Below are positions 3,179-39,294 of a stretch of DNA of 41,912 bases, in pieces. The notes beneath the pieces are model-generated. The model saw only the letters and a list, made by a program, of their open reading frames with translations. It searched no databases and was not told the origin of the DNA. The position numbers and the translations under genes were made by a program. Origin of the DNA: Escherichia phage Sortsne; the sequence record NC_048178.1. One strand, written 5' to 3'. Numbering within the stretch: the stretch's first letter is position 1; each line of letters begins with the position of its first letter.

Positions 3179-3197
3179 GCCGGGGAATGGCCCCGGC
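3179..3197 (+). promoter_or_regulatory. 5'-UTR hairpin GCCGGGG-AAUGG-CCCCGGC (boxB-like candidate)
   Basis: Perfect 7-bp stem, pentaloop AAUGG, about 10 nt after predicted transcription start. Confidence 0.4.
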
Positions 3198-3216
3198 AAT
3201 AACGGAGATTGAGACG

Positions 3217-3456
3217 ATGGCAAAATTAACAGTACGCATCACAAACGGTCAGGAACGCGGTCGCCAGTGGAATCACCACTTTAAAGCCACATCGGGCCAC
3301 GCCACTGTTAAGCGTTACCTGGACTGGAAAGCGGCGGAACTCACAGGCGAGGAGCCGGAAGTCGAGGACTACGTGGACGAGTTCACCACACGCGGCGAAG
3401 TCGAAGCACGTCGCATTATCCATCGTAACAACCTGCGCGCCGCTGAATACTACTAA
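3217..3456 (+). CDS. hypothetical protein
   Basis: Start refined to ATG at 3217 (GGAG RBS 9 nt upstream); the track start at 3187 lies inside a perfect 5' hairpin. Confidence 0.5.
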   Translation: MAKLTVRITNGQERGRQWNHHFKATSGHATVKRYLDWKAAELTGEEPEVEDYVDEFTTRGEVEARRIIHRNNLRAAEYY

Positions 3457-3460
3457 CCAG

Positions 3461-3498
3461 CCCGGCCCCTTCGGGGGCCATCCACCCAGGAGTCGAAG
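3461..3498 (+). repeat. conserved intercistronic element, copy 1 (hairpin GGCCCC-UUCG-GGGGCC plus CCCAGGAGTCGAAG leader)
   Basis: Near-identical to 16206-16245. Confidence 0.6.
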
Positions 3499-3876
3499 AT
3501 GTCAAAAATGATCGTTGTTACCCGCTGGCCTACTGCCGCCGACGCACAGCAAGACGCGGAGCGCGTGGCCTCACTCATTCGCGCCCATTCCTGCGTCCAG
3601 TCCATGCCGATCCGCGTTAACACATACGAGCGCGAGGAGAAGCTGGGCGGCGGGTTCGGCTACGTGCTTACATGCGGCCCGGTGTCGATAGTCTGCCGGA
3701 GCCTTACACGTTACACGGCCTGCTATTCCCTGCCGGAAGGTCCACGCGGAAACCATCGGGACGAGTTCGAGGCGGTCACGGCTGAGGCGGCGATCGATGA
3801 AATGCGGGAATTTCTGGAAGCGCGGATCGAACATGCCCGGCTCGCGCTGGCCGTACTGGCCGGGCCGGACTCATGA
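3499..3876 (+). CDS. hypothetical protein
   Basis: 125-aa ORF preceded by conserved hairpin plus CCCAGGAGTCGAAG leader. Confidence 0.5.
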   Translation: MSKMIVVTRWPTAADAQQDAERVASLIRAHSCVQSMPIRVNTYEREEKLGGGFGYVLTCGPVSIVCRSLTRYTACYSLPEGPRGNHRDEFEAVTAEAAIDEMREFLEARIEHARLALAVLAGPDS

Positions 3877-4094
3877 TCCCGGCGAAGGTGCAACGGAAAG
3901 CGAAGGCGATCCTCCACCTGTACGCCCAGAAGGAGGTCCAGCCCCGCAAGCTGGCCGGAGGTCTGGGCCTCGCGCTGGAGGTCGGTTATCGCTGGCGTCT
4001 CCTGTCGCGTGACAAGGGCGCAACGTGGGATCTGGTATCACACGAGCGCTACAACAAACTAACCAGGGGCAAAAAGCCCCGCACAATGAGGTAA
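3873..4094 (+). CDS. hypothetical basic protein
   Basis: 73-aa ORF, ATGA start/stop overlap with upstream gene; Lys/Arg-rich. Confidence 0.4.
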   Translation: MIPAKVQRKAKAILHLYAQKEVQPRKLAGGLGLALEVGYRWRLLSRDKGATWDLVSHERYNKLTRGKKPRTMR

Positions 4095-4099
4095 CTACA

Positions 4100-4396
4100 A
4101 TGCAAAAATATTACTATCTGGTAGAGGCTCACGGTCGCCAGGTGCTGGTCCGCAAGGGCGAAAGCGAAGAAGATCTCCCGGCGATCCAGTTCGTGACGCA
4201 CACGGACGACGGCGCGGAAATGTCGTTCGGCCTGAATTTTGAGCCGAAGGAAGGCTCCACCGAAGAAGCCGCCGAAGCGGACCGCGATCGCGCCTTCGAG
4301 AAGGAGGAAGAACTCCGCACTATGGCCGAAGCCTACGCGGAGAAGCTGATCGGATGTGCTACCGGGTTCGACGCTTTGCGCGCTTTGCAAGGCTAA
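4100..4396 (+). CDS. hypothetical acidic protein
   Basis: ATG at 4100 with GAGGT RBS 7 nt upstream (track ORF 4025 trimmed to this start). Confidence 0.45.
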   Translation: MQKYYYLVEAHGRQVLVRKGESEEDLPAIQFVTHTDDGAEMSFGLNFEPKEGSTEEAAEADRDRAFEKEEELRTMAEAYAEKLIGCATGFDALRALQG

Positions 4397-4420
4397 TCAA
4401 AACGTTATTCCATTCCTACT

Positions 4421-4441
4421 AAGGGGCCTTTGCGGCCCCTT
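4421..4441 (+). terminator. GC hairpin (weak terminator/attenuator) upstream of holin
   Basis: AAGGGGCC-TTTGC-GGCCCCTT hairpin, short T tract. Confidence 0.3.
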
Positions 4442-4494
4442 GATTCTACGTGCTACCCTTTAGCGGTTATTTAATTGTTAAAAGGGATCAGGCA

Positions 4495-4851
4495 ATGTCC
4501 GAACATACGACGCTCTGGCAATTGTTCCAGTTGTACCGGGTGGAGTTGGGTTATTCATTCATCGCGGCGTCTGTCGCGGTATTCCGTCACTGGCAATTAC
4601 GCCACCCATTCCGCGATATCGTAAGCGGCGGGGCCATCTGCGCGGCGGTGGCGTTCGGGATGAATAACATCCTGTCATTCTTTGGGGTCGATCATGGTAC
4701 GTGGGGTTATCTGGCGTCCGTGTTCCTGGGTTACGTGGGCGTGGAGACGGCGCTCGACTGGGCCAGCGAAAAGATCCCTTTCCTGAAAAAAATCCGCGCC
4801 ACCCCGGCGCATACTTCACCAGCGGAGGATCAGACCGATGGCAAAATTTAA
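4495..4851 (+). CDS. putative holin
   Basis: 118-aa protein with hydrophobic segments and charged C-terminus, immediately upstream of and overlapping the endolysin gene; position in lysis cassette. Confidence 0.5.
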   Translation: MSEHTTLWQLFQLYRVELGYSFIAASVAVFRHWQLRHPFRDIVSGGAICAAVAFGMNNILSFFGVDHGTWGYLASVFLGYVGVETALDWASEKIPFLKKIRATPAHTSPAEDQTDGKI

Positions 4852-5311
4852 GCTAAACGAACAGCGCCGCGCCTTTCTGGACGCGATCGCCTACTGCGAG
4901 GGGACCGACAACGGACGCCAGCAAACGCGAAACCACGGTTACGACGTGGTGGTGGGCGGCTCCCTGTTCTCCGACTATTCGAAGCATCCCGATCGCCTGG
5001 TGCGCCTGCGTCCGGGCCTCTCCTCCACGGCTGCTGGCCGCTACCAGTTGTTAAGCCGTTATTACGACGTGTACAAAAAACAGCTTGGCCTCCCGGACTT
5101 CGGGCCGGACAGCCAGGACCAGATCGCGCTCCAGCAAATCAGCGAGCGTAAAGCGCTGGAGGATATCGACGCGGGCCGGATCGAGTCTGCCGTGGCGAAG
5201 TGTAACAAGACGTGGGCCAGCCTGCCCGGCTCCCCTTACGGTCAGCATACCTACAGCATGGCCGTATTTCTGGAGCAATTCCGCAAGGCGGGCGGGAAGG
5301 TGGCCGCATGA
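4838..5311 (+). CDS. endolysin, lambda R-type lytic transglycosylase
   Basis: 157 aa; strong resemblance to lambda R as recalled (FLDAIAYCEGTDNGRQQTRNHGYDVVVGG...AGRYQLLSRYYD...WASLPG). Confidence 0.9.
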   Translation: MAKFKLNEQRRAFLDAIAYCEGTDNGRQQTRNHGYDVVVGGSLFSDYSKHPDRLVRLRPGLSSTAAGRYQLLSRYYDVYKKQLGLPDFGPDSQDQIALQQISERKALEDIDAGRIESAVAKCNKTWASLPGSPYGQHTYSMAVFLEQFRKAGGKVAA

Positions 5312-5829
5312 TCGCCGCCCTCCGGCTGTTCCTCTCGACTCACTGGCGCTTAGTGCTGCTGGCCGTTGTCGTGCTGCTGGCGCTGGGGGGATCTTTCTGG
5401 GCGGGCCACGAGTGGAGCGATCGCGCGTGGTCCAAACGCTGGGCGCAACGGGACGCGAACGACTCCTCCCAGGAAGCGAACGCACAAGCCGCCGCCCGTA
5501 TCATTGAACAGGGGCGAAACATCGCCCGCGAGGAGTCCGTAAAATATGCGAACGAACAGGCCGCAAAAGCTCGCGCCGCTGCTGCTGCTTCTGGTGCTGC
5601 CCTTGATCGGTTGCTCGAACGAGCCAGCAAGGAAGCCGCCCGACGCGAAGCCGCTGATCAGACCGCTGCCCTCGGAAGGGCGTCAGGGGAACAGACCGCC
5701 CGAATGTATTCCGACTTGCTCCGACGGACTGGAGAAGCTGCTCGACGGTATGCTGATATAGCGGAGGGGGCGATCACCGCTGGGGAGGTATGCGAAAGGA
5801 ATTACGACGCCGTGGAGCGTCAGCAATGA
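5308..5829 (+). CDS. i-spanin (Rz-like)
   Basis: N-terminal TM anchor then Ala/Arg/Glu-rich coiled-coil-like periplasmic region; directly after endolysin; contains embedded lipoprotein ORF. Confidence 0.7.
   Translation: MIAALRLFLSTHWRLVLLAVVVLLALGGSFWAGHEWSDRAWSKRWAQRDANDSSQEANAQAAARIIEQGRNIAREESVKYANEQAAKARAAAAASGAALDRLLERASKEAARREAADQTAALGRASGEQTARMYSDLLRRTGEAARRYADIAEGAITAGEVCERNYDAVERQQ
5546..5761 (+). CDS. o-spanin (Rz1-like), embedded in Rz in alternate frame
   Basis: 71-aa ORF wholly inside Rz; signal peptide with lipobox LIGC; proline-rich mature part. Confidence 0.65.
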   Translation: MRTNRPQKLAPLLLLLVLPLIGCSNEPARKPPDAKPLIRPLPSEGRQGNRPPECIPTCSDGLEKLLDGMLI

Positions 5830-5858
5830 GAAAGGGGCCTTGCGGCCCCTTTTTTTAT
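5829..5858. terminator. bidirectional intrinsic terminator between lysis cassette and Ig-like gene
   Basis: AAAGGGGCC-TTGC-GGCCCCTTT stem-loop followed by T7, A-rich on the other side; convergent gene ends. Confidence 0.8.
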
Positions 5859-6625
5859 GCTGCCGGATTAACCGTAACAGTACAGTGAATGGATTCGACC
5901 GTTTTCGGGGGGTTGGTGTTGCTGCTGGTGGCTACGCACCAGTATTCCCCGGCATCACCAGCGACCGGGGACGCTTTGGTGTAGGTCGCGGAGGTCGCCC
6001 CGGAGATCGGCGCGCCGTCCTTGTACCACTGGTAAGAGTACGGAGCGAGGCCCGTCTGAGGGTTCGCGGCCACTACCAGGGAGGCGGAGGTCCCGACGGT
6101 CCACGTCGCGCTCGCGGACAGGTTGGTGGACAGCGAGATCGCGACCTTCGTCCTCACGCGCTGAGAGTCCAGCGTCTGCCCGATCGAGTCGGTGATGGTC
6201 ACGAAGTAGTCCGCGTTATGGGTCGCTGCGGTGTAGTTCGAGATCGTCAGCGTGTCAGTCGTTGCGCCGCTGTAGCCGTTGGCGTTGGTGACGTTGCTCG
6301 TCTGCCCGCCGGAGATTTTCTTCCACTGGTAGGAGTAAGGAGGAACGCCATCAGCGGCCACCACTTTAAAGTCCTTACTGGTGCTAACCGGGACGTAAGT
6401 CGCGCCAGCGTCGCCAGCGGCCACGCCGGGGAGATCGGTCGTGAACTTGAGCGGCTTCGCCAGGTTCGGGTCGTACTCCATGTAAAACATACCAGTGGGA
6501 TCAAGCCCGGTCGGCTCGTCAGCCAGCCAGATCACGTCCTGCTGAGGGACTTCCGACGGGTCGGAGATCCGGGTGACTTTCCAGCCCAGGAGATCCGGGC
6601 GGTAGTAGCGATGCCAATAACTCAT
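5855..6625 (-). CDS. Ig-like domain protein (two tandem Ig-like repeats)
   Basis: Start refined to ATG at 6625 (GAGGA RBS); repeated PPYSYQWKK / APYSYQWYKDG motifs typical of bacterial Ig-like domains. Confidence 0.55.
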   Translation of the reverse strand: MSYWHRYYRPDLLGWKVTRISDPSEVPQQDVIWLADEPTGLDPTGMFYMEYDPNLAKPLKFTTDLPGVAAGDAGATYVPVSTSKDFKVVAADGVPPYSYQWKKISGGQTSNVTNANGYSGATTDTLTISNYTAATHNADYFVTITDSIGQTLDSQRVRTKVAISLSTNLSASATWTVGTSASLVVAANPQTGLAPYSYQWYKDGAPISGATSATYTKASPVAGDAGEYWCVATSSNTNPPKTVESIHCTVTVNPAA

Positions 6626-6699
6626 AATTTTGTCCTCATGGTGCGCCGTGTTATAGTTCCCCGGCATTGTAGATCATCTTTGAGCCGTAAACGAAAGGA

Positions 6700-6726
6700 G
6701 CCGCATTTTAAGCGGCCCTTTTTTTT
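6700..6726 (+). terminator. plus-strand-oriented terminator-like hairpin with T8
   Basis: GCCGC-ATTTTAA-GCGGC then CCTTTTTTTT; lies between two minus-strand genes. Confidence 0.35.
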
Positions 6727-6827
6727 CATAGTAGGGTAGTAACCCCGAAGCCAATTAAACCCCATACGGCGGCACTGGCTGCGATTACGCCCCAAATTAC
6801 ATAGCGGTGTCCGCGTAAGTCTTTCAT
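6726..6827 (-). CDS. small single-TM peptide (33 aa)
   Basis: Below track cutoff; ATG overlaps upstream stop (TGATG), GAGGGG RBS; translates MKDLRGHRYVIWGVIAASAAVWGLIGFGVTTLL. Confidence 0.3.
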   Translation of the reverse strand: MKDLRGHRYVIWGVIAASAAVWGLIGFGVTTLL

Positions 6828-7216
6828 CAGAATTTCCCCTCTTTCTTGAATTTTGCGATCCGCCCACGGAGAGCGGCGACGGTTTTCCCCAGCCAGTTAG
6901 CGACGTGCTTATGGGTCAGCCCGTCCGGCACTATGACGCCATGAGGTACGACGGCCACCAGTTCGTCCTCGTCCTGCTCCGTCAGTAACCCCTCATACCA
7001 GCGGGCCAGCTTGCGGTCCTCCTCCGTGGTCCACAGGGTGTACGTTTTACTATACGCCAGCGAGACGCCCAGGTGGTGGGCGCGGACCTGCATCTGGCGG
7101 AAGTTGCGCCCGATCTTTTTGGCGAGGTCCTTCGGCGGCATGGTCCCGGCGAGGCGCTCCAGTTCGGCGTCCTGCTCGTCTGTCCATCCGATAATCTTTG
7201 CGGTGACTTGGCTCAT
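6827..7216 (-). CDS. putative DNA-binding protein with two W-T-x-E-E-D repeats (GcrA/SANT-like)
   Basis: 129 aa; IGWTDEQDAELERL and LWTTEEDRKLARW repeats; assignment from motif recollection only. Confidence 0.4.
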   Translation of the reverse strand: MSQVTAKIIGWTDEQDAELERLAGTMPPKDLAKKIGRNFRQMQVRAHHLGVSLAYSKTYTLWTTEEDRKLARWYEGLLTEQDEDELVAVVPHGVIVPDGLTHKHVANWLGKTVAALRGRIAKFKKEGKF

Positions 7217-7476
7217 TTACTCCCCTTAAGGTGTCTTTTGTTTTTGGTGGTGGCGATCATTTCTTTGAGCGATGGACCGCCGTCGCTCCCTGGTACTACC
7301 CGGACCAGGTGCGGGTCCGGCTGGTGGAGGAAGATCTCACCCTCCGGGGTGGTGATCGATATGTCGGCGATCGCGTCCTTCCCGAATACCTGGGACACTT
7401 TGGCGATCATCGTGTCCAGGTTGGCGGCTTGCGCCGCCTCCCATACTTCGCGCCGGGTCCCCTGTTTACGCGCCAT
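7213..7476 (-). CDS. hypothetical protein
   Basis: 87-aa ORF, start/stop overlaps with neighbours in a coupled minus-strand operon. Confidence 0.4.
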   Translation of the reverse strand: MARKQGTRREVWEAAQAANLDTMIAKVSQVFGKDAIADISITTPEGEIFLHQPDPHLVRVVPGSDGGPSLKEMIATTKNKRHLKGSK

Positions 7477-7756
7477 ATGCTTTCCGAAGGGCGTCGTTAG
7501 CGTGGGCCATTGTCTCGCGGATCTCGCGCTTGGTGGCCTTCACCGCTTCCGGGCCAGCGGCCCACATACGGAGGCGGTTCTGGAGGCACTGCGCGTTAAA
7601 GGCCAGTGTCTGGGCCTGCGCCAGCATCAGCCAGCTTACGACCTTCGCGCGGTTCGGACGGGAGAAGATGGTCCCCATCTGATCGCCCCAGTATTTCGCG
7701 CGGAGGTCTGCCAGTGTTTCGCCGTTCTTGTTGGTGCGGATAGTTGCTGTATTCAT
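7466..7756 (-). CDS. hypothetical protein
   Basis: Start set at ATG 7756 (MNTATIRTNKNG...) with GAGGAGAC leader; first gene after promoter at 7790-7818. Confidence 0.4.
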   Translation of the reverse strand: MNTATIRTNKNGETLADLRAKYWGDQMGTIFSRPNRAKVVSWLMLAQAQTLAFNAQCLQNRLRMWAAGPEAVKATKREIRETMAHANDALRKAYGA

Positions 7757-7789
7757 CTTTCTGTCTCCTCGTGTTGGTGTGATAAAGAA

Positions 7790-7818
7790 TATAACAAAGG
7801 ATAAGTTTACCCGCAAGA
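7790..7818 (-). promoter_or_regulatory. sigma70-like promoter TTGCGG-N17-TATATT, flanked by ATCACGAAA and TTATCACA motifs
   Basis: Minus-strand reading; immediately downstream of an intrinsic terminator. Confidence 0.45.
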
Positions 7819-7837
7819 GGTTTTTTAATTATTTCGT

Positions 7838-7864
7838 GATAAAAGAGAAAAGGCCCCGGAGGGC
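7838..7864 (-). terminator. intrinsic terminator within early minus operon
   Basis: GGCCCTCCGGGGCC hairpin followed by TTTTCTCTTTT on minus strand; promoter 7790-7818 follows. Confidence 0.5.
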
Positions 7865-7869
7865 CTCGA

Positions 7870-8610
7870 TCAGAATGGGACGTTTGCCTGGTACACGGCG
7901 AGGGCGAAGCCTTCGGGGGTGGCGCTGCGGATGTTCTTCGTGCGGGTTGATGATCCTCCCAGCTTGGCCCATCCCGGATTGTTGGCGACTGCCGGGACTG
8001 GCTTATGGTCGGGCATGTTGAAAGCGCCGCCGCACCAGATCCCCGTCTGCTTCGGGTAGCTGTCCCGCGCCGGGTAGATCTCCGGGTAGAGGCTATGCTG
8101 GTGATCCTCCGGCAAGTAGCCGCCGAAGTGGTACGGGTGGAACCAATGATCGCAAGGTCGCCACATCGTGGAGAGCCGGGAGATCTTCGGGTTCTCCAGC
8201 ATCCAGGGGATAGCCTCCTTGTCGTCATATCCGCCGCTCTCATACGCGGCAAAGATCGCCACCTGCTCGACCATCTTCGCCAGCGCCACAGCCTTCTCCT
8301 GGAAGCGCGGATCTTTCTTCCGCTTCGCTTCCCACCAGCGCGCCCCGGTACAGGTAAGATCGGTACACTCGGCGAACGACGCCACGAACATAACGCCGGG
8401 GCCGACCTCCTCCGCAATGCGGAGCGCTTCGGCTTCGGTGTTGTCGGCGTCGAACATGCGGCCCACGCGGACCAGGTTCGGCTCCTCCGGGTCGCGGTGG
8501 ATGCCGTCCGGGTGCTGGCCGTCATACATCCAGCATTCATAGCCGCCCTTAAGCCACGGATCAACCATGATCCGGGTAAGGTTGAATAAGAAAATCGCCT
8601 TACCCGCCAT
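7870..8610 (-). CDS. hypothetical protein (replication-module associated)
   Basis: Start refined to ATG at 8610 (MAGKAIF...) adjacent to upstream stop; no confident motif. Confidence 0.45.
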   Translation of the reverse strand: MAGKAIFLFNLTRIMVDPWLKGGYECWMYDGQHPDGIHRDPEEPNLVRVGRMFDADNTEAEALRIAEEVGPGVMFVASFAECTDLTCTGARWWEAKRKKDPRFQEKAVALAKMVEQVAIFAAYESGGYDDKEAIPWMLENPKISRLSTMWRPCDHWFHPYHFGGYLPEDHQHSLYPEIYPARDSYPKQTGIWCGGAFNMPDHKPVPAVANNPGWAKLGGSSTRTKNIRSATPEGFALAVYQANVPF

Positions 8611-8611
8611 A

Positions 8612-9211
8612 TTAACCTCTCGCTGGCATGATGATAAACGTAGCCGGACCGCAAGGCGTTTCGAACTCCACGCGGAGCGGCTGATCCTTCGCGGCGAAGT
8701 GGAGAGAAGCAAACGGCATCTTAGCGCCGAACTTTTTCCCCAGCTTCTCAATCAGGCCCAGATACTCGGAGGCCACCTTGATCTCCGTGATAGCCTTCGC
8801 GCCTGCCTTCTGCCCGGAGATCAGGCGATCCACGTCAGGATAGCGAGCGTCCACGACGTCCACCGTCCCGACCGCGCCGCGCATCTTGCGGAAGTCATAC
8901 TCCGCGAGGTCCTTCGGCTTATCGGCGATCGCGCTGGTCCAGTAGACGATCCCGGCTTCCGTATCAATGACCGCCGTCGAAAAGGCCCGGCCACTGGGGG
9001 GAGTCGAGATCTTGAGGATAACGCCCTCCTCCGGGGCGTTTACCAGGCCGTGGGCGCTGGAGAGCGCCACGTGACCGTTAGAGGACTGGATCGTGTTGCC
9101 TTTCAGGTGGACGGCGTTCAGATAATAGCGGACGTCGTTCTTTGCCTGGGTCAGCGCGTGGGCGCGTAATGCTTCTACGGGTGCATAAATAATCATCTTT
9201 GAGCCTTCCAT
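8612..9211 (-). CDS. truncated DnaN-like sliding-clamp protein
   Basis: DVRYYLNAVHL resembles the DVRYYLNG motif of DNA polymerase III beta clamp, and C-terminal FIIMPARG resembles the clamp C-terminus; about half the length of DnaN. Confidence 0.45.
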   Translation of the reverse strand: MEGSKMIIYAPVEALRAHALTQAKNDVRYYLNAVHLKGNTIQSSNGHVALSSAHGLVNAPEEGVILKISTPPSGRAFSTAVIDTEAGIVYWTSAIADKPKDLAEYDFRKMRGAVGTVDVVDARYPDVDRLISGQKAGAKAITEIKVASEYLGLIEKLGKKFGAKMPFASLHFAAKDQPLRVEFETPCGPATFIIMPARG

Positions 9212-9861: not shown

Positions 9862-9869
9862 GTTGCGCC

Positions 9870-10307: not shown

Positions 10308-10456
10308 TTTGTACTCCAGTTGTTGTCTACGTGGTAAAGTTAACGGATTCGTGATTTTATTTCAAGTCAATTTGATGATAAATTATTAAATGTCTCTTTC
10401 GTCTGGTTCCCAGGCGTTACAAATTTAGCGCCGCTGGTATCTCGTGCGCTCCCATC

Positions 10457-10482
10457 GGCCCCACGTGCGGGGCCTTTTTTTT
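10457..10482 (+). terminator. plus-strand-oriented intrinsic terminator in primase-dUTPase intergenic region
   Basis: GGCCCCACGTGCGGGGCC hairpin followed by T8 on the plus strand; U-tract faces opposite to the flanking genes. Confidence 0.5.
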
Positions 10483-11293: not shown

Positions 11294-11294
11294 C

Positions 11295-16958: not shown

Positions 16959-17204
16959 GTGGAGAATAAAGCCCAGCCTATGACCGGGGCCGATATCAAA
17001 GGCTATCGAACATTGAACGAAGCCGAAAAAAAGGCAATGAATGACCTGAAAGAGACGAGCCGCTATTTTATCGCCACGCTCGATCAGTTCCCGGACATTC
17101 TGCCGGACGTCGATCGCCGCTGGTTAGCTCGCGCCCGTACTGCAATGCAAGACGCTTGCATGTTTGGCTGTCGCGCGGTAGCAAGACCGGACGATGATTG
17201 TTAA
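16959..17204 (+). CDS. hypothetical protein
   Basis: GTG start with GGAG RBS 8 nt upstream; ends just before bidirectional terminator. Confidence 0.4.
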   Translation: MENKAQPMTGADIKGYRTLNEAEKKAMNDLKETSRYFIATLDQFPDILPDVDRRWLARARTAMQDACMFGCRAVARPDDDC

Positions 17205-31403: not shown

Positions 31404-31453
31404 CGTTTTGTCTCTCTCGTTGGTTGGTTAGGCCCCCACAGGGGCCGGGTTAG

Positions 31454-31897: not shown

Positions 31898-31937
31898 CTT
31901 GTGCTCCGTTGTTTATCACTGTTTCGTTGTTTCTTGT

Positions 31938-31956: not shown

Positions 31957-31997
31957 TTGCCGGGCTGTAAAGTGGTTTTTTAACGAAAGTGATATTT

Positions 31998-34232
31998 TTA
32001 TTGGGCGGCGTTGTCCAGCGTCCGATCGGCCTGCTGCTGCGCCTGGCGTTCTGCCAGTTCGCGGGCGGCGTTGTCGTTCTGCTGCTGGTGTCCCTGGCCC
32101 ACGGAGCGGAGGAACAGGTCCGCCTGTTTGTGGGCGTCGTCCTTCTCCGCCGTGACGTACTTTTGCAGGATGGCGATCGCGGACAATAGCTGTTCCTGCG
32201 GGATCGCTGCGGCTTCGGCCATCGTTTTGACGGTCTGGGCCTGCTTAAGCTGCGCGCCGCTGCTGGAGTCCTGCGCCTTGAGTTGCAGTTCTGCGCGCTT
32301 GTTCTCCTGCTCCATCACTGCCGCCTGCCCCTGGGCCGCTACGCCCTGCGCTGCGATCATCTGCGGGTCCGGCTGCTGCTGTTGCGCCTGCTGGGCCTGC
32401 TCGACCATCGCCTTTTCCTCGTCCGTCTGAGGCTGCACGATGCCAGAGAGGAGCATCTGTTTACGGCTGTACTCTTTGAAGTCCTGCAAGCCTTCGCCGT
32501 CCATGTTCGCAATGATCAGCGACATGACGATCGCCGCGTTCGGGTCGTTCGGGGCCATCGTGGCGAGGAGGTTCGTCAGACTGCGGACCGTTGCCTGGCG
32601 CTTCGTCTGGGAGGACTCGCCAACGTCGGCGACAACCTCATATTTTCCGCGCTTGAGGTCGTTAATCGCGATCGCCTCTTTGGTGGTGCGGTCGATCACT
32701 TTCCCGGTCATTAACACGAGGTCGTCGGTCCCGTCCTCGTTCTCGATCCTCACGTAGTTCTCGGAGCCGTAGACCTTGCGGGCGGCGGAGAGGTAGACGC
32801 GGCCACAGTGGCGGAGGGTTTTCGCCAGGTTGTCCATATAGAGCGCGCCCTGGCCGTCCATGCGGGCGAAAATTGCCTCCACGGTTTCGGTCGCCAGGTT
32901 CGACGGGAGCGCCTCAAGCTGGGAGGAGCCGACGATCTGCTGGATGGTCCCGCCCGTGTACTGTAGGACCGCTGCCAGCGCCGGAGAAAGCGGCGTTGAT
33001 GGCGTGTACCCTAACGGGCCAGCCTGCGCCACGACCTCACCAGAAGCGTTACGGAGCGATTTAGCGGGCAAGTATGCCGGGCGGTTCGTGTTACGTTCCC
33101 CCCAGGCGTCCGCCAGCTTGCCGGGAATCATATCAATATCCATGATCGGGATATTGTCGCCGCCTGCCTGCGCTGCCTGGTCGGCCATCATGGACACGAT
33201 CAGGTTTTCCAGTCGCTGGGCGTCCATTGCGAGGGTGGCGTGGCCCATTACGCGCTCCTGGTTGTCGATAAACGAGCGGCGCGCGTTGAAGATAAAGACC
33301 GGAATCCAGTCGAACGGGATCAGCTTCGGCTCCTCGATCCACTCTCCGCCGGAGAACAGCCCGCAATAAACCTTACGGCGCTTAACCTTACGGCTCTTGA
33401 GTTTCTTCCAGCCTGCGGCCTTTAGCTCGTCCTCGATCAGATCGATATCGTCCTCGTCGTAGACCTCCGTCTCCCCGGTGAGTGGGTTCTTATAGGAGAT
33501 CACGGTGGTGTCCTCGATCTTCACCTCGTACCAGCGGGCGATATAGATCGCGTCCTTCGTGGCCCAGTCGAAATTTTTCCCGGTGTTGAGTTCCATCAGG
33601 TCCTCCGGGAGCATCGCGTCCGGGTACTCCTCCTCGTACTTGTCCGGGGTCATGCTGAATAGCTCGGCCATCCACATGGCATCCGAACGATCGTACATTT
33701 TGGAGTCGGGATCGACGAACAGGCACGAGGCCGGATCATAGATCGGGTAAAACGTGATATGCCGCTCCTCGTTGTCCGGGTCGAATTGGTCCTCCAGTTC
33801 GGTGTCCATGCGAAACGCGCCCATCCCGCCGTCGATCCCGTCGCCGTAGGTGTTATCGACGGACTCCGGCCCGTTGCTCTCGTTGTAGTCGGCGCGGAAT
33901 TTGCCGTTTAGCTTGTCGGCTAACTCCTCGCTGGCCTTGTCGTCCTTCGGACGGAATACCACGGAGACACGGTTCAGACGGTAGTCGGCGATCAGGCGGT
34001 CACACTCTCGCGCTACTTTGTTAAGCTCGAATCGAGGGTATTTCTCAAAGCGATCATCATCCATGCGAAAGCCGCTGTTAGTGCTGCCTTCCCACTGCGC
34101 GCCCGGTACGCGGACAAAGCGCTGGGTTTCGATAATCTTCTTGCGGCTCTGCTCCTCGCTGCTGATCGACTGGCTGAGGCGCTTACGTGCGCTCTCGTGC
34201 CAGTTCTGGGCCGACTTCGTTACTCGTGCCAT
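31998..34232 (-). CDS. portal protein (P22 gp1-like) with Gln-rich C-terminal barrel
   Basis: 744 aa, size and position as in P22-like phages; long Q/A-rich helical C-terminus. Confidence 0.85.
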   Translation of the reverse strand: MARVTKSAQNWHESARKRLSQSISSEEQSRKKIIETQRFVRVPGAQWEGSTNSGFRMDDDRFEKYPRFELNKVARECDRLIADYRLNRVSVVFRPKDDKASEELADKLNGKFRADYNESNGPESVDNTYGDGIDGGMGAFRMDTELEDQFDPDNEERHITFYPIYDPASCLFVDPDSKMYDRSDAMWMAELFSMTPDKYEEEYPDAMLPEDLMELNTGKNFDWATKDAIYIARWYEVKIEDTTVISYKNPLTGETEVYDEDDIDLIEDELKAAGWKKLKSRKVKRRKVYCGLFSGGEWIEEPKLIPFDWIPVFIFNARRSFIDNQERVMGHATLAMDAQRLENLIVSMMADQAAQAGGDNIPIMDIDMIPGKLADAWGERNTNRPAYLPAKSLRNASGEVVAQAGPLGYTPSTPLSPALAAVLQYTGGTIQQIVGSSQLEALPSNLATETVEAIFARMDGQGALYMDNLAKTLRHCGRVYLSAARKVYGSENYVRIENEDGTDDLVLMTGKVIDRTTKEAIAINDLKRGKYEVVADVGESSQTKRQATVRSLTNLLATMAPNDPNAAIVMSLIIANMDGEGLQDFKEYSRKQMLLSGIVQPQTDEEKAMVEQAQQAQQQQPDPQMIAAQGVAAQGQAAVMEQENKRAELQLKAQDSSSGAQLKQAQTVKTMAEAAAIPQEQLLSAIAILQKYVTAEKDDAHKQADLFLRSVGQGHQQQNDNAARELAERQAQQQADRTLDNAAQ

Positions 34233-34247
34233 GTTCTTCTCCGTGGG

Positions 34248-35870
34248 TTAGCGGTTGCTCGGCACATTATAGCCGTTGTAATCGTCATTTTTCACGCGCT
34301 CCGGCGGCTGCATCAACATGCAAAGCACGTCGGCCATGCCAGGCGATTTCATTTTTAACTTGGTGCGCATCTGCGGCTTAGGCATACGCTGGAATTTCCC
34401 CTCCGTGTTGTAAACGCGGGGAATACGGCATACCTCGGCGCGTAGCTTCTGCATATGCTCCCCGATCCCCTCGCTGGAGAGGCTGATCAGCTCGTCCGGG
34501 TTCACGTACTCGCCGTGGACCACGGCCCGGTAAGTCTTTTCAAAGCGGCGGCGTAACAGGTAGATATCCTGGGAGCCTCGGTTCTTAAAAGCGTTCTGAT
34601 TTTTCAGAAGGTTGTCGCCTTCGGTCTTGTTATTTAGCCACGTATCAAGCTCCACCAGCCCGTCCGGCTGGTTCACGCCATCCCCGGCGTTATACCCCGA
34701 CACGAGGGTGTTAGTCGAGGCGTAAGCGTCGGTGATCTGGCGGCGGAGGCCAGCGCCCAGCCCTGCCCGGTCCCAGATAAACGCCTCCACGCCGTGATCC
34801 TTCGCCGTGTTCACGGCCTTGTCCGCTGCGTCGTTGGCGTCGCCTTCGAACCACTCCTCCATCCACGTGACCACGGAGCCGTAACGCTCGCCGTATGCCT
34901 TGTTATCCGCCCCGACGTCCGCCGGGTCGAGTGCGCCGATCCTCATGCCGGACGGCTTAAAGCCTAATTTCACATGAGCGTCGATCGCCGCGTCGAACCA
35001 CTCCGCCGGGATAATGGCATCCGGTACGCTGTCGTTAAAATGCCCTTCCCACACGTGATCGAACAGCGCGCGGGAGAGGGTTTTCCGGTCGAACTCCATT
35101 TCCGCCCGGAGTTCTGGGGGAAACCACGGATTATCCGACCAGTTAACGCGGATCACGAGGTGGAGATCGTCCTCGTAGATGCCGTCACGAAGGAGATCCT
35201 CCCAGAATGGATTGATAAATCGCTTCGAAAACGCATCCTCTGAGGAGCCGGGGTTCGCGGTGAATAGCATCATGCCGCCGGATTCGCGCATGGTCGGCGT
35301 TAGCTGGCGGATCGACTCCTCGGAAAAGGTCTGCGCCTCCTCACCCCAGAATCGACGATAACCGAACGCGGATTTAACCCCGGCGGGGTCGCGGGCCATC
35401 CCTTTAAAGCGGATGATCGCGCCGTTCTCGTGTCGGATCTCCTTCTCCAGTACCTCGAAGCCGTCCAGGTTCGACGCCTCGATCCGGTTGACGAGTAGCG
35501 GGTGTACGGAGTCCTTGATCGATGCCTGGTACTCACGAAGGCACAGGGCGCTCGTCGCCTCGTCGTGGGCGTCCGCGTCGATGATTGCGCCGACGGTGAG
35601 CGACTTCCCGGAGCCTCGGCCACCGACCAGGATCACAAAGCGCTTAGGCCGTAACAGGATCGGGGTCAGGACCTCCGCGATCGTCAGGTCGTGCGGGTCG
35701 CTGGTGTATACCCACTCGCCGTTAACCTTCTTCATGTTGTAGCAGTGGGCCGCACTGGTCCCATCCGGGCGGTAGACGCCGTAAACCAGCCCGCCCTCCT
35801 TCGCCTTATAGCGGAGTTGCGCCTCCAGTCGTGCGAGGCGCTCCAGCGCCTCCTTACGATTTCTTGCCAT
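34248..35870 (-). CDS. terminase large subunit
   Basis: Walker A VGGRGSGKS near N-terminus; C-terminal acidic RNase H-like nuclease region; upstream of portal. Confidence 0.85.
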   Translation of the reverse strand: MARNRKEALERLARLEAQLRYKAKEGGLVYGVYRPDGTSAAHCYNMKKVNGEWVYTSDPHDLTIAEVLTPILLRPKRFVILVGGRGSGKSLTVGAIIDADAHDEATSALCLREYQASIKDSVHPLLVNRIEASNLDGFEVLEKEIRHENGAIIRFKGMARDPAGVKSAFGYRRFWGEEAQTFSEESIRQLTPTMRESGGMMLFTANPGSSEDAFSKRFINPFWEDLLRDGIYEDDLHLVIRVNWSDNPWFPPELRAEMEFDRKTLSRALFDHVWEGHFNDSVPDAIIPAEWFDAAIDAHVKLGFKPSGMRIGALDPADVGADNKAYGERYGSVVTWMEEWFEGDANDAADKAVNTAKDHGVEAFIWDRAGLGAGLRRQITDAYASTNTLVSGYNAGDGVNQPDGLVELDTWLNNKTEGDNLLKNQNAFKNRGSQDIYLLRRRFEKTYRAVVHGEYVNPDELISLSSEGIGEHMQKLRAEVCRIPRVYNTEGKFQRMPKPQMRTKLKMKSPGMADVLCMLMQPPERVKNDDYNGYNVPSNR

Positions 35871-36276
35871 AGCCCAGATCCTTAAACGTCGCCTCGCACA
35901 AGTTGAACAGGGAGCCGACCAGATACGCCTCCGGCTCGTCGTTGTTCGGGTCCCACTCGATCCCCAGCGTGTCGCCGATGTAGTTCTTTGCGTGGATCAC
36001 CTCGTGGGCGATGGTCGTCCGCCAGTACGGCCCGCGACGGATGCCGATAAATACCAGTTTAACGTCGGCGGCGTGGTACTCGATCGCCGCGCCCTGCTGG
36101 ACAGGCTTCTCCCTGTTCCAATCCGGGAAGCATTCGCCCAGCTTCCCCACCATAGCCTCGTCTGCCGGGTCAAAGCACACGATAAAGTAAGGGTAAGGGG
36201 ACGCCGTGAACCATTTCAGGCCCAGCGCCTCCAGTCGTCCGTAAGTGTCCGGCGGTAACTTATTTTTTCGAGTCAT
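35854..36276 (-). CDS. small HExxH-motif protein (putative zinc metallopeptidase-like) between terminase genes
   Basis: 140 aa; TIAHEVIHAKNY contains HEVIH with acidic residues downstream; overlaps both neighbours by 17 nt. Confidence 0.45.
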   Translation of the reverse strand: MTRKNKLPPDTYGRLEALGLKWFTASPYPYFIVCFDPADEAMVGKLGECFPDWNREKPVQQGAAIEYHAADVKLVFIGIRRGPYWRTTIAHEVIHAKNYIGDTLGIEWDPNNDEPEAYLVGSLFNLCEATFKDLGYGKKS

Positions 36277-36805
36277 GGAGGAGTTGCTCCAGCGTTGCGA
36301 TACGTTCCAGGAGGTCGGACAGTTCGGCCACTTCTGCGCCGTGTCGGATCATCTTCACGAGGACCTCGGCGGCGTCGAACGGGATCACCCCGTCGGCCAC
36401 GTGCTGGGTTAGCTCGTCGATACGGTCGGCGGCGGTCGTGCCTTTGAGTTCGAATTGATAGATCGGCGCGGTCGGCTTCACGTAGGGGATAAGACGGCCC
36501 AGGATATCGCGCATCATGGCCGGGTCATAGAGGGACATTTCGATCGCGCGCTGGATGTATAGCTCCTCGGTAAGCGGGATCTCCACCATTTCGTCCTCCA
36601 TGATCGGGCGGTCGTTCTCGTCCAGCATGACCTCGCCCGTCTTGGGGTTGACCTTTTCGATCTTCTCCCCGGTGCGCTCCTTCATTTTCACCTTGCGGAG
36701 AGCCTCCAGCAAGATCGTGCGGAATTGCTTCTCCCTGCCACGGCGGGCGGGCTGGTTCTCCGCGCTAAACTTCTTGCCCTTCTTAAGATTCTGCTCGTTC
36801 GCCAT
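36260..36805 (-). CDS. putative terminase small subunit
   Basis: 181 aa with basic N-terminus (NLKKGKKFSAENQPARRGREK) and helical remainder; by position; identity uncertain. Confidence 0.4.
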   Translation of the reverse strand: MANEQNLKKGKKFSAENQPARRGREKQFRTILLEALRKVKMKERTGEKIEKVNPKTGEVMLDENDRPIMEDEMVEIPLTEELYIQRAIEMSLYDPAMMRDILGRLIPYVKPTAPIYQFELKGTTAADRIDELTQHVADGVIPFDAAEVLVKMIRHGAEVAELSDLLERIATLEQLLHDSKK

Positions 36806-36806
36806 G

Positions 36807-36858
36807 ATAAAAAAAATCCTCCGGTTGGCCTGAATTGTTCCAGGTGTTGCGGAGGATT
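36807..36858 (-). terminator. intrinsic terminator-like hairpin plus U8 tract immediately upstream of terS start
   Basis: 9-bp stem AATCCTCCG/CGGAGGATT, 26-nt loop, then TTTTTTTT on the minus strand, overlapping the terS RBS. Confidence 0.4.
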
Positions 36859-36862
36859 GTCG

Positions 36863-36891
36863 TTTATACCGGGGCCGTGATCAAGTCCACG
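36863..36891 (-). promoter_or_regulatory. candidate late promoter (-10 TATAAA, weak -35) just upstream of terminator and terS
   Basis: Minus-strand TGGACT-N15-TATAAA; would give a short hairpin-plus-U8 transcript unless antiterminated. Confidence 0.25.
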
Positions 36892-37186
36892 GCGATCCCT
36901 TGCCGGGGGAGAGGTCCGGGCATAGGTGCATATTCTCCGGGGTGATAGGCCAGGGGCTAACCGGGTGACGGTACGCCAGGGAGTCGGCCTTCTTGGCGAT
37001 GTACCCCCGGACCTTCCCGCCGCCGCGCTGGCTGCTGTATGCCGCACAGATCACGCACGAGCCGTTAGTGGTGTATCGAGTGAAGTTGCCGGGGTGCTCC
37101 TTGCACTCCCCGCCGTGGTACGTCTTGCGCTTGAGGAGAAGGGCCTCCGCCCTGCTCCGCGCCACTGAGCGCTCTTTCGTCTCCAT
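36881..37186 (-). CDS. hypothetical Cys/His-containing protein (candidate late regulator)
   Basis: 101-aa ORF coupled to upstream gene (TGATG); 3' end overlaps a promoter-like -10 and precedes a terminator; coding status uncertain. Confidence 0.3.
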   Translation of the reverse strand: METKERSVARSRAEALLLKRKTYHGGECKEHPGNFTRYTTNGSCVICAAYSSQRGGGKVRGYIAKKADSLAYRHPVSPWPITPENMHLCPDLSPGKGSPWT

Positions 37187-37689
37187 CAGTCACAGCCCCC
37201 GGAGGAGGACGATCCGCTGTCGCTGCTGCCGGAGTCGTAGCTCCCGCCGTCGTCGTGGCTGGAGTGGTGGCGGCTGCTGCTGTCGTCGTGGCTGCTGGAG
37301 TGGCTGCGGTGGCTGCTGCTGTCCCAGTCCGCCCGGTCGCTGGTGTGGCAGATCGGATTGAGTGGCGAGGTCAGGGAAAGCGGGTTCAGCGGGTCGAGGT
37401 CGTCGCCCTGGTTGCGGAGTGCGCGCCGGGTCGGGTCGCTGCGGAGGGCGTTCGCCTCACGTGCTGCGGACTTGTCGGCCATGCTGCGGGGAGCCTGCAC
37501 GACCTTAGCCTGGGGACGGTTCGCCATCGTCTCGATCATGCGCTCCATACGCGCCTTACCGCTTAGGACGTCCTGGACGCTGCGCTGGTTGCAGTCGTCA
37601 CAGATCCAGAATACGTCCGCGCTCTCGGTCCATTTGCGCGGGGCCTGCTTGCCGCACGTGCGGCACTCTTTGAAACGTTTAAGGGACAT
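37186..37689 (-). CDS. zinc-ribbon protein with His/Ser/Asp-rich low-complexity tail
   Basis: Start refined to ATG 37689 with conserved CACGAGAGAGA leader; CRTCG...(17)...CDDC ribbon; C-terminal SSSHRSHSSSHDDSSSRHHSSHDD. Confidence 0.45.
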   Translation of the reverse strand: MSLKRFKECRTCGKQAPRKWTESADVFWICDDCNQRSVQDVLSGKARMERMIETMANRPQAKVVQAPRSMADKSAAREANALRSDPTRRALRNQGDDLDPLNPLSLTSPLNPICHTSDRADWDSSSHRSHSSSHDDSSSRHHSSHDDGGSYDSGSSDSGSSSSGGCD

Positions 37690-37757
37690 TGTGATCTCTC
37701 TCGTGGGTGGAAACGGCCCCAGCATAGCGCCGGGGCAAACATCATGCAAGCGTTAAA

Positions 37758-38039
37758 TTATGCGGACAATACCCACCAGCCCATAGCCACGATAAGCGCG
37801 CCGAAGCCGATCCACTTCCACGGCAACGGCTTAACGTCTGCGAGCGCCGCCATCAGTCCGGGAGGGCCGGAGATCTCGACGCCGTTCGAGGTGGTCATAG
37901 TCCCGAATACGCCCTCCGCCTGTAGCCTGCGCTTTACCGCGTCAAGGTCTACGGGCGGGCGGTTGATCCAGTCGCGGACCTCTCGATCCGGGATGTACCC
38001 CGGAGGGAATGCTCGATCCCCCCAGGTCCCGGCGGTCAC
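37758..38039 (-). CDS. hypothetical protein with C-terminal TM anchor
   Basis: 93 aa, C-terminal WKWIGFGALIVAMGWWVLSA hydrophobic helix. Confidence 0.4.
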   Translation of the reverse strand: MTAGTWGDRAFPPGYIPDREVRDWINRPPVDLDAVKRRLQAEGVFGTMTTSNGVEISGPPGLMAALADVKPLPWKWIGFGALIVAMGWWVLSA

Positions 38040-38986
38040 TTTACGCGGCGGAAGCGCTTAACCTGTTCCCACGCGACGACGCTCACCTGGAGCGTGTTAT
38101 GGCGTCCGCCTACCGTCTCGATCTCCACCATATCGTCGTCGTTCAGGAGGGGCGGGCGGCGGTCCTTGTCGAAGCGCTGCCACACGATCCAGTCCTCGCC
38201 CTGTTCGCCAGTCTGCGGACGGTCCAGCAAGGCGTCCAGCAATGCCTCCGCCGTACCGATAGTGATCCGCCCGCCTCGGTACTGCTCGATCAGTTGGCGG
38301 GTCTGGTCGGAGCGCTGGATGTGCCAGCGGAGGCTCTGCTCCGTCTCCTGGTGGACGCGCTCGGCGAAGTGGGCCACGCGCTCCGGGTCGGTGTCGCAAC
38401 GGGTCAGGCGCTCGCGGGCTTCGTGCTCGTTAACAAGCTGCTGGAGGCCGCGCGTCGGCATCTTGAAAACGTTCCAGTTATACGGGACGCGCTTCTCGTC
38501 GCAAGCCTTCACGTAACGCTCCAGAAGGTCCACGCGGCGCTCGGCGTCCTTCGCTGCCTCGGCGTGTTTCTCGCTGGCTTCGGCCATTGCCACCAGTTCG
38601 CGGGCCTTCTGCTCGGTCCATGCGATGGTCTGCGGCTTGCCGTCGATCGGGCGGAAGGTTGGCGGGACGTGTAGCGCGCCGACGATCTCGCGGATGTTCA
38701 CGTAATACCCGCTCATCCGGTGCTCCGCCTCGGTCATGGTCTGGAGTTGGCGCTCCAGTGCGCGCTCGTGGGACTTGTCGCGCCACTTCTCCGACTCCTT
38801 GAATACACGCTCCAGCGCGTCGAGGGACAGGAGGGGGAGGTGGTGCGGGGCCAGGTCCGGCTCGGCCTTAAAGCCGTGTTGCATGGCGTCGGTAACGTCG
38901 GCGATCCAGTTGGCGCGCTGCTGTACCTGGGTGCGGGCTACATGGTCCATCAGGGCGTAAGCCACGCCGCTGTCGTGTGAGTTCAT
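38036..38986 (-). CDS. hypothetical protein
   Basis: 316-aa ORF preceded by hairpin plus CCAACCAACGAGAGAGAC leader. Confidence 0.5.
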   Translation of the reverse strand: MNSHDSGVAYALMDHVARTQVQQRANWIADVTDAMQHGFKAEPDLAPHHLPLLSLDALERVFKESEKWRDKSHERALERQLQTMTEAEHRMSGYYVNIREIVGALHVPPTFRPIDGKPQTIAWTEQKARELVAMAEASEKHAEAAKDAERRVDLLERYVKACDEKRVPYNWNVFKMPTRGLQQLVNEHEARERLTRCDTDPERVAHFAERVHQETEQSLRWHIQRSDQTRQLIEQYRGGRITIGTAEALLDALLDRPQTGEQGEDWIVWQRFDKDRRPPLLNDDDMVEIETVGGRHNTLQVSVVAWEQVKRFRRVK

Positions 38987-39032
38987 AGTCTTGTCTCTCT
39001 CGTTGGTTGGCCCCGTTGCCGGGGCGGTTGGA

Positions 39033-39257
39033 TTAAAAGCCGTCGTAGTAGCCAGGGAGGGCGCGGAGTTGCGCTTCGTCGTCCACCAGGTCCCACTCTG
39101 TCGGCTCCAGGTCGATCGTTACGCCAGCCAGCCCGTCGCGGTCCGCGAGTGCTGCGTGGATCATCATGCCAGCCACCAGCGGGGAAGGGTTGCCGCTTGC
39201 CATCTGGCGGGCGATCTCTGCCTGAATCTCTGCGAGTGTCTCGGCTAATGTTTTCAT
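39033..39257 (-). CDS. hypothetical protein
   Basis: Start refined to ATG 39257 (AGAGGA RBS) downstream of promoter 39304-39332 and its 5' hairpin. Confidence 0.4.
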   Translation of the reverse strand: MKTLAETLAEIQAEIARQMASGNPSPLVAGMMIHAALADRDGLAGVTIDLEPTEWDLVDDEAQLRALPGYYDGF

Positions 39258-39275
39258 GCTGCGGTCCTCTGGTTG

Positions 39276-39294
39276 GGCGGGACCATTTCCCGCC
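39276..39294 (-). promoter_or_regulatory. 5'-UTR hairpin GGCGGGA-AAUGG-UCCCGCC (boxB-like candidate)
   Basis: Perfect 7-bp stem with the same AAUGG pentaloop as the hairpin at 3179-3197. Confidence 0.4.

Follow-up and report, generated by a model that had tools for sequence, protein, structure and literature searches.

Escherichia phage Sortsne (MK651787), the type species of Sortsnevirus, has a genome of 41,912 bp (PMC7552041), and the window analysed here is that whole stretch (41,912 bases, 60% G+C). Sortsneviruses and Murrayviruses are lytic podoviruses that combine a P22-like morphogenesis module with a T1-like replication and recombination module and rely on host RNA polymerase throughout; our literature search found no paper on transcription or gene regulation in this group. 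The subject of the analysis is a pair of short hairpins with the loop AAUGG (hairpins A and B) that stand at the predicted 5' ends of two transcripts, one on each strand. Operon A, which follows the first of them, consists of four small genes up to a terminator-like hairpin (tA) ahead of the holin gene, and operon B extends over 2.4 kb up to a strong intrinsic terminator (tB) ahead of the packaging genes. The features at these loci are:

3141–3169, plus strand: promoter P_A, with TTGTGA at 3141–3146, a 17-bp spacer and TAGTAT at 3164–3169; transcript start predicted near G3176.
3179–3197, plus strand: leader hairpin A, GCCGGGG-AAUGG-CCCCGGC, at about +3 to +21 of the P_A transcript; 52.4 bits.
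39304–39332, minus strand: promoter P_B, with TTGCAT at 39332–39327, a 17-bp spacer and TATATT at 39309–39304.
39276–39294, minus strand: leader hairpin B, GGCGGGA-AAUGG-UCCCGCC; 50.9 bits.
4421–4450, plus strand: terminator-like hairpin tA, AAGGGGCC-uuugc-GGCCCCUU then gauucuacg; it separates the fourth of operon A's small genes from the holin gene (ATG at 4495).
36809–36858, minus strand: strong intrinsic terminator tB, AAUCCUCCG...CGGAGGAUU then U8; z = −3.1, with 0 of 200 shuffles folding as well.

Hairpins A and B both begin 9 nt past a sigma-70-type −10 hexamer, and because a purine occupies position 7 after the −10 hexamer at both sites, the predicted transcript start puts each hairpin at about +3. 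From hairpin A there are 6 nt to the Shine-Dalgarno (SD) sequence GGAG (3204–3207) and 19 nt to the ATG of the first gene, gpA1, at 3217; hairpin B is likewise separated by 6 nt from its SD, GAGG, with the ATG of gpB1 downstream at 39257. Folding with ViennaRNA gave a 7-bp stem and a 5-nt loop in both cases (−16.1 kcal/mol for A and −13.8 kcal/mol for B). The hexamers of P_A and P_B match the consensus at 8 of 12 positions, which is why a simple promoter scan omitted them. The initial annotation had given the coordinates and sequences of both hairpins exactly, had placed the promoter hexamers where we find them, conserved in relatives, and had noted the identical AAUGG loop and stem length that RNA folding reproduces. 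Perfect 7-bp/5-nt hairpins as such are not rare in the window (6, vs. 3.6 ± 2.0 in shuffled sequences); any two of them with a common loop were obtained in 4 of 300 shuffles. A covariance model run over every window position with filters off returned exactly sites A and B at E ≤ 10.

The window is collinear with, and about 80% identical to, the Sortsnevirus genomes IME279 (Klebsiella), Kc237 (Kosakonia) and sortkaff (Escherichia), and likewise the Murrayvirus genomes Lumpael, IME_EC2, ST231, sortsyn, KMB41 and sortregn. These nine isolates are the close relatives referred to below; the comparison additionally covered metagenomic and Logan contigs (L-numbered), Skarpretter, the Skarpretter-type contig L039 and Kc166B. 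Each of the Sortsnevirus and Murrayvirus relatives carries 1–3 copies of the hairpin. At site A, upstream of gpA1, it is present in 9 of the 9 isolate relatives and in several metagenomic and Logan contigs, and the hexamers and 17-bp spacing of P_A are kept in IME279, Kc237, sortkaff, L012, L040 and L042 while the spacer sequence varies. At site B, the same hairpin as in the window occurs in IME_EC2, sortsyn, KMB41, L016, L029, L030 and L042, and ST231 carries the variant GGCGGGG/CCCCGCC; P_B is conserved in IME279, sortkaff, L016, L029, L040 and L042, again with hexamers kept and spacers varying. Third copies, found with the covariance model in Murrayviruses, sit between the portal and scaffold genes.

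The copies fall into four stem versions (GCCGGGG/CCCCGGC, GGGCGGC/GUCGCCC, GGCGGGA/UCCCGCC and GGCGGGG/CCCCGCC). Among the 12 distinct sequences, 100% of the stem cells are paired, and compensatory double changes occur in 4 of the 7 pairs; the observed covariation score was reached by 0 of 500 shuffles, and slid registers were only 39–58% paired. The Murrayvirus site-A stem (GGGCGGC/GUCGCCC) includes a G.U pair that is an A.C mismatch on the opposite strand, and since that pair fits only the sense strand, the selected structure belongs to the sense transcript. The loop is significantly more conserved than its surroundings: 5 of 5 loop columns are fully invariant vs. 0 of 15 in the 9-nt spacer and 6-nt downstream flank (Fisher's exact test, p ≈ 6 × 10−5). 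The distance from the −10 hexamer to the hairpin is 9 nt (once 10) in every canonical copy, despite diverged spacer sequences, and that from the hairpin to the SD is 5–8 nt across all copies. Loop variants are confined to extra copies (AACGG in KMB41, and GGCGGGGA-AUGG-UCCCCGCC in IME_EC2 and sortsyn); Kc166B has the variant hairpin CGGCA-AUGG-UGCCG.

Ordinary intercistronic hairpins of the phage use the tetraloops UUCG, GCAA and UGUG, so that the AAYGG loop is not merely its usual hairpin closure. Taken together, these observations make it very likely that hairpins A and B belong to a family of promoter-proximal RNA hairpins that act in cis, are under selection and have a sequence-specific loop. 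Searches for tRNA, tmRNA and Rfam families gave no match for the hairpins; the whole window has no Rfam hit at the gathering threshold, and at E ≤ 10 only sub-threshold chance matches were found around either hairpin. A pattern search for the exact hairpin type retrieved group members and otherwise only unrelated G+C-rich matches, and a metagenome scan for further copies yielded one locus, a duplicate of a viral contig.

The intercistronic hairpins mentioned above are G+C-rich and without a U tract (3464–3479, plus strand; 39010–39025, minus strand; 31431–31446, minus strand); two of the three precede an identical untranslated region (UTR), aaccaaccaacgagagagac, and they are probably mRNA processing or stability elements. 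As a further side observation, the AUG in the loop of hairpin A (3187–3219, plus strand) is in frame with the gpA1 start 10 codons on, and that of hairpin B (39286–39254, minus strand) opens a 10-codon upstream open reading frame (uORF) whose stop overlaps the gpB1 start (AUGA). These arrangements are probably incidental, since they are not conserved across copies, and we rejected the loop AUG as a start codon or uORF on the grounds of inconsistent frames, ACG variants and the lack of an upstream SD.

The hairpin can be missing from an otherwise intact leader. Skarpretter and L039 have the same promoter and 5' UTR before orthologous genes, without the 19-nt hairpin (TATAGTtctttcacaccaacacgaggag), and so does the window itself at site C, upstream of the gene starting at 7756 (minus strand); the layout at Murrayvirus site A is TATAGTtctttcacc[19-nt hairpin]actaccggagag. 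The hairpin is thus an optional addition to a promoter and UTR that are otherwise generic. Because it is optional, with a copy number of 1–3 among close relatives, it fits a modulator better than an essential switch. Its distribution over operons is specific. In the window, the hairpins head precisely those two operons in which a terminator stands before the lysis or packaging genes. One promoter class (AGCAC-N5-GCTAA, 22 nt, −10 hexamer) drives at least seven operons in Murrayviruses, and AAUGG-type hairpins follow only 3 of those promoters, namely those whose operons lead to lysis, packaging and head genes; another 5' hairpin, GGGCG-ACGAGA-CGCCC, follows a fourth promoter, and the DNA-metabolism operons have none.

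The motif AGCAC-N5-GCTAA is palindrome-like, centred near −42 and often accompanied by TG at −15/−14, and occurs at Murrayvirus and Skarpretter operons (L005 at 61, 37536, 36228, 28983, 28265, 7066 and 4756; at least 6 sites in L019; 403–420 in L017). The sequence ATAGCACGAATTGCTAAA is also found in intergenic regions of T1-like phages, e.g., Sfin-1. The window lacks the motif and has ordinary −35 hexamers instead. A sigma-54 interpretation of the motif was rejected, since the spacing is 8 nt rather than 10.

At site B, four genomes (IME279, sortkaff, Lumpael and L040) keep the promoter and have, at the same offset, a structured RNA of about 150 nt in place of the hairpin; in L040, the promoter is the window's own P_B, identical through the −10 hexamer. 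The genes that directly follow site B form a mosaic when close relatives are compared, and the −10 hexamer is the exact breakpoint. The core of the large RNA is near-invariant (GGAGAGGRGYAACGCAGGGGC...GGAUUCCCAACCGUGA...ACCGACGAAG), and its closing stem covaries, as does an internal helix that occurs in five compensatory versions. We found it in 172 phage records, once per genome and nearly always unannotated, in Sortsne- and Murrayviruses, Dhillonvirus, Warwickvirus and others; it matched no Rfam family, tRNA or tmRNA and was absent from the 5,426 E. coli genomes searched. It always starts about 9–11 nt past the −10 hexamer, and the operons behind it in Dhillonvirus bob and Warwickvirus tunus are made up of small early-type genes. 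Its loci in the compared set are:

L001, 40006–40169, minus strand: ~150-nt leader RNA.
L003, 2050–2213, minus strand: ~150-nt leader RNA.
L004, 2822–2985, minus strand: ~150-nt leader RNA.
L040, 3971–4140, minus strand: ~150-nt leader RNA.
L037, 3489–3658, plus strand: ~150-nt leader RNA.
L038, 3494–3663, plus strand: ~150-nt leader RNA.
L020–L023, L026, L044–L052, L054 and L056–L058: further ~150-nt leader RNA loci.

A third, diverged hairpin in the window (site D) lies behind a promoter of its own:

41046–41065, minus strand: diverged hairpin, GGGC-G-GC-AACGGU-GC-A-GCCC, with an interrupted stem, 12 nt past the −10 hexamer.
41078–41106, minus strand: site D promoter, TGGACA-17-TATTCT.

Site D did not reach the E ≤ 10 threshold of the covariance model in the window; its counterpart in contig L016 (5007–5049) carries compensatory changes. 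The first hairpin of the ~150-nt RNA (CGGCGGCA-GGA-UGCAGCCG) resembles both site D and the Kc166B variant, a likeness that suggests common ancestry of the large RNA and the small hairpins.

We next consider the terminators toward which the marked operons lead. The terminator-like hairpins that the initial annotation had reported ahead of the holin and terS genes are real (tA and tB). The U tract of tA is stronger in relatives (U8 in IME279), and tA is also present in the hairpin-less Skarpretter. A gap of 4 nt separates the end of tB from the ATG (36805) of the gene that opens the packaging module, putatively terS, and the terS SD is located within the 3' arm of the tB stem, so that termination and translation initiation of terS are structurally coupled. 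The promoter scan found no minus-strand promoter between P_B and tB, and tB stands so close to the terS start codon that none would fit there. Conservation of tB extends to IME279, IME_EC2, ST231, sortsyn, KMB41 and sortregn; it is absent from Skarpretter and L039. A terS-adjacent terminator accompanies every 5' leader element, whether hairpin or large RNA, and is missing in the two hairpin-less Skarpretter-type genomes. Farther on, the late array, which comprises 22 kb of morphogenesis genes, contains at least three strong internal terminators, including one after the capsid gene and one before the tailspike gene. The hairpin-less Skarpretter retains strong pre-holin, pre-scaffold, post-capsid and pre-tailspike terminators, and Kc237 has two terminators ahead of terS and no site-B hairpin. 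Because these terminators lack matching hairpins, readthrough of late terminators in this lineage is not generally hairpin-dependent. We also considered that the loop might pair over a long distance with CCAUU close to the terminators and rejected this, as the CCATT at 4410–4414 of the window is not conserved in relatives.

As to possible protein partners, scanning some 30 small or unknown phage proteins against Pfam and PHROG revealed no N, Q or other antiterminator family, in agreement with the initial annotation, which had recognised no N-like protein; nor do these phages have a recognisable sigma or anti-sigma factor. The gene at 3873–4094 (plus strand), which had been put forward as an Arg-rich N candidate, turned out to encode a protein with a ParE-like toxin fold (PF24732, E = 7 × 10−19; 73 aa, isoelectric point 11.1), for which a sequence search found no relative in the PDB. 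It overlaps by 4 nt an acidic upstream open reading frame (3499–3876, plus strand) in a toxin-antitoxin-like layout inside operon A; the upstream frame is non-homologous in IME279 and sortkaff. All hairpin-bearing genomes have the ParE-like gene, as does Kc166B; Skarpretter and L039 lack it. Four proteins (1953–2393, 2593–3156, 3873–4094 and 6827–7216) are found in 9 of the 9 hairpin-bearing relatives and not in Skarpretter; this co-occurrence is only suggestive of partner candidates, as the contrast is with the Skarpretter lineage alone, represented by one complete genome, L039 having been checked for the hairpin and the ParE-like gene only. The last of the four (6827–7216, minus strand; 129 aa) contains two Myb/SANT-like WT(D/T)E(Q/E)D repeats, matches phrog_323 ('transcriptional regulator, D5-like', E = 1 × 10−16) and is a candidate transcription regulator of the phage. 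The conserved first gene after hairpin A, gpA1 (3217–3456), has an invariant N-terminal ERGRxW motif with only 2–3 Arg. An AlphaFold2 model of its product built on a 16-sequence alignment was unusable (pLDDT 55, pTM 0.27), and the Skarpretter homologue, which keeps G15, R16 and W18 and has lost QER, decides nothing.

Among the possible functions of the hairpin we give the highest probability, roughly 40%, to a loop-recognised element that protects or marks the 5' end of the mRNA. In this model, host sigma-70 RNA polymerase would start about 2 nt upstream of the hairpin, and the first ~21 nt of the transcript would form a 7-bp G+C-rich stem with an AAYGG loop, followed 6 nt on by the ribosome-binding site. 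The paired 5' terminus would block RppH and 5'-end-dependent attack by RNase E, the conserved loop would serve as the recognition site of a putative phage or host factor that reinforces or times the 5'-end effect, and the output of the long late-leading transcripts would be raised as a result. A base-paired 5' terminus shields the ompA, papA and T7 phi10 leaders from RppH and RNase E. Since it is the placement at the extreme 5' end that is constrained, we consider control of the fate of this end the likeliest function: the start predicted from sequence leaves about 2 unpaired nucleotides before stems of −14 to −16 kcal/mol, which is the geometry required of 5'-terminal stabilisers, according to the passages of PMC3997798 that cite Emory 1992 and Bouvet & Belasco 1992. 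The fixed 5'-terminal position despite diverged spacers, together with the dispensability of the hairpin in relatives, further favours a modulatory role tied to the 5' end. Several points weigh against 5'-end protection. A plain stabiliser has no loop requirement, so the invariant AAYGG loop demands an extra partner, and the ~30 proteins scanned include no RNA-binding protein that could be named as such. Exchange with a highly conserved structured RNA of 150 nt exceeds what 5'-end protection needs. The transcription start positions are predicted only, and readthrough from upstream genes would place the hairpin internally.

The invariant loop points to a specific partner and so speaks more for an N-like or operator-like function than for plain stabilisation, and the swap with a large conserved RNA fits contact with host machinery, as with put. 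A possible, though doubtful, explanation is processive antitermination, in which the nascent hairpin, alone (put-like) or bound by a factor (following N/boxB-like logic), would modify RNA polymerase so that transcription from P_A passes through tA into the lysis genes and transcription from P_B passes through tB and the terminators behind it into the 22-kb array of morphogenesis genes. It would account for the same loop on exactly both operons that face terminators before late genes, for a tB that abuts the terS start with no minus-strand promoter found between it and P_B, for the three or more strong terminators inside the late array, for a P22-like late module in which Pfam and PHROG scans find no Q/gp23 homologue, and for the way tB tracks the 5' leader elements and is missing in both hairpin-less Skarpretter-type genomes. 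HK022 putL likewise starts at +3 of its transcript (PMC9378689), and the hairpin/large-RNA swap recalls the exchange of lambda nut-N for HK022 put. However, there is no boxA, no GNRA-like loop and no N- or Q-like protein, a fixed +3 position is unneeded for N-type sites, and a lone 19-nt hairpin falls far short of the complexity of the 70-nt, two-stem put RNA. Antitermination is further weakened because hairpin-less relatives keep similar late-operon terminators: Skarpretter does so with the same promoters, and Kc237 has its two terminators before terS in the absence of the site-B hairpin. The link to late-leading operons fits antitermination and 5'-end protection alike, and we narrowly favour the latter. 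We think it unlikely that the hairpin and the ~150-nt RNA are alternative forms of one new class of promoter-proximal, cis-acting antitermination RNA, either RNA-only (put-like) or factor-dependent, spanning Sortsne- and Murrayviruses, Dhillonvirus and T1-like coliphages; such a class would act on the transcription complex, rendering polymerase resistant to the terminators that gate the lysis and packaging genes.

The remaining explanations concern translation, recombination and DNA. By binding the loop, 6 nt before the SD, a factor could repress or activate the first gene's translation, or the hairpin could provide a ribosome standby site or insulator, in keeping with the constant hairpin-SD distance of 5–8 nt, the location at about −38 to −20 relative to the AUG, i.e., at the edge of the 30S footprint, and the AUG within the loop of most copies. 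We regard translational control as improbable, however: the first genes vary by site and genome (gpA1, gpB1 and others), so that there is no common regulated product, and the loop AUG is not conserved (ACG in the AACGG variants), stands in inconsistent frames and has no SD upstream. Comparably low odds attach to a recombinational cassette, in which promoter and hairpin would serve as short homologies for module shuffling, as in T4 PeSL, with the RNA structure secondary. Near-identical promoter-plus-leader cassettes of 60–70 nt, 2–4 per genome, and mosaic genes right after site B with a breakpoint at the −10 hexamer agree with such a role, which nevertheless leaves the compensatory stem changes, the sense-strand G.U and the loop invariance unexplained and is compatible with RNA-function models rather than an alternative to them. 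That the inverted repeats lie just downstream of two gene ends might suggest a DNA-level element (dimeric operator or cruciform), an intrinsic terminator of the upstream gene or a chance palindrome. These we rejected as very improbable: the arms differ between sites and the asymmetric centre is conserved, the opposite of an operator, and the G.T position spoils DNA symmetry; AAUAAC and CAACCA rather than a U tract follow the hairpins, neither of which was listed by the terminator scan; and conservation and covariation exclude chance.

A loop-specific RNA tag on late-leading operons would offer a concrete, easily mutated handle on the timing or boosting of late expression. RNA-mediated antitermination, should it prove to be the mechanism, would extend a process described chiefly in HK022; factor-assisted 5'-end protection, should that be the case, would represent a new mode of phage mRNA stabilisation and supply synthetic biology with compact parts. 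The family of ~150-nt leader RNAs that can take the hairpin's place is a more novel lead than the hairpin, and the exchange between the two points to a general 5' leader slot in operons of enterobacterial phages.

Some observations on the window stand apart from the hairpins. The 13-mer GATAAAGAATAAA, with 0–2 mismatches, occurs 4 times (0.29 expected): at 3145–3157 (plus strand), 39340–39352 (minus strand), 7781–7793 (plus strand) and 41073–41085 (plus strand). The copy at A is in the sense orientation within the P_A spacer, and that at B, also sense, spans about −45 to −35 of P_B and lies over a stop codon; the open reading frames upstream of sites A and B both terminate in ...DKE*. At 7781 and 41073, minus-strand promoters take their −10 hexamer and first transcribed bases from the reverse complement of the 13-mer. 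The repeat may bind a regulator or may have been left behind by a cassette duplication. A dUTPase gene (PF00692; 9870–10307, minus strand), shared with Skarpretter, Kc166B and L040 and lacking in the nine close isolate relatives, is a mosaic insertion within the DNA-metabolism operon. An 81-aa protein (16959–17204, plus strand) has an Acb2/Tad1 hairpin domain (PF24729, E = 6 × 10−16), which makes it a likely anti-CBASS/Thoeris nucleotide sponge; IME279 is the only compared genome with a homologue.

In comparison with known systems, the suggestion of the initial annotation that the hairpins are candidate nut/boxB-like sites holds as far as it describes selected, promoter-proximal RNAs on late-leading operons, and fails as regards membership in N/nut: the hairpins are not lambdoid N/nut members. 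The boxB of lambda and P22 has a 5-bp stem and a GNRA-like pentaloop (GAAAA/GAAGA or GACAA). As in these phages, a short hairpin with a 5-nt loop stands early in two divergent operons, upstream of terminators, in exactly two copies per genome, with the loop rather than the stem conserved. In contrast to them, the loop here is AAUGG and not GNRA-like, the stem has 7 bp rather than 5, the hairpin lies at +3 rather than tens to hundreds of nucleotides downstream, no Arg-rich N protein was found, and the phage is a non-lambdoid lytic podovirus. There is also no boxA: searching for CGCUCUUA-like sequences as YGCTCTTWA with at most 1 mismatch gave 19 hits vs. 20.7 expected, none of them within 3100–3300 or 39200–39400, and since the hairpin is predicted to begin at +3, the ~2 nt of transcript before it leave no room for an upstream boxA. 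Lambdoid Q/qut differs in that no Q or antiterminator Pfam family was found here. T4 PeSL cassettes similarly comprise repeated short promoter and stem-loop units that border mosaic modules of small genes, but their stem-loop is terminator-like and upstream of the promoter, whereas here it lies inside the transcript and is under RNA-level selection.

HK022 put is about 70 nt long and folds into two stem-loops and a triplex, which contact the beta' zinc-binding domain (PMC9378689). The likeness lies in a cis-acting nascent RNA that starts at +3 of a sigma-70 transcript (putL), in the lack of a dedicated protein for put, and in the exchange of the element for another device at the same position among related phages. 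The difference is that a single 19-nt hairpin is present here, the next 20 nt being the SD and start codon; the 150-nt replacement RNA is a better match in size, with no demonstrated similarity. The 5'-terminal stabilisers of ompA, papA and T7 phi10 share with the Sortsne hairpins a stable G+C-rich stem about 2 nt from the 5' end (the predicted one in the Sortsne hairpins), an SD close behind and abundant or long transcripts, but the known stabilisers have no loop-sequence requirement, whereas in the hairpins described here the loop is the most conserved part.

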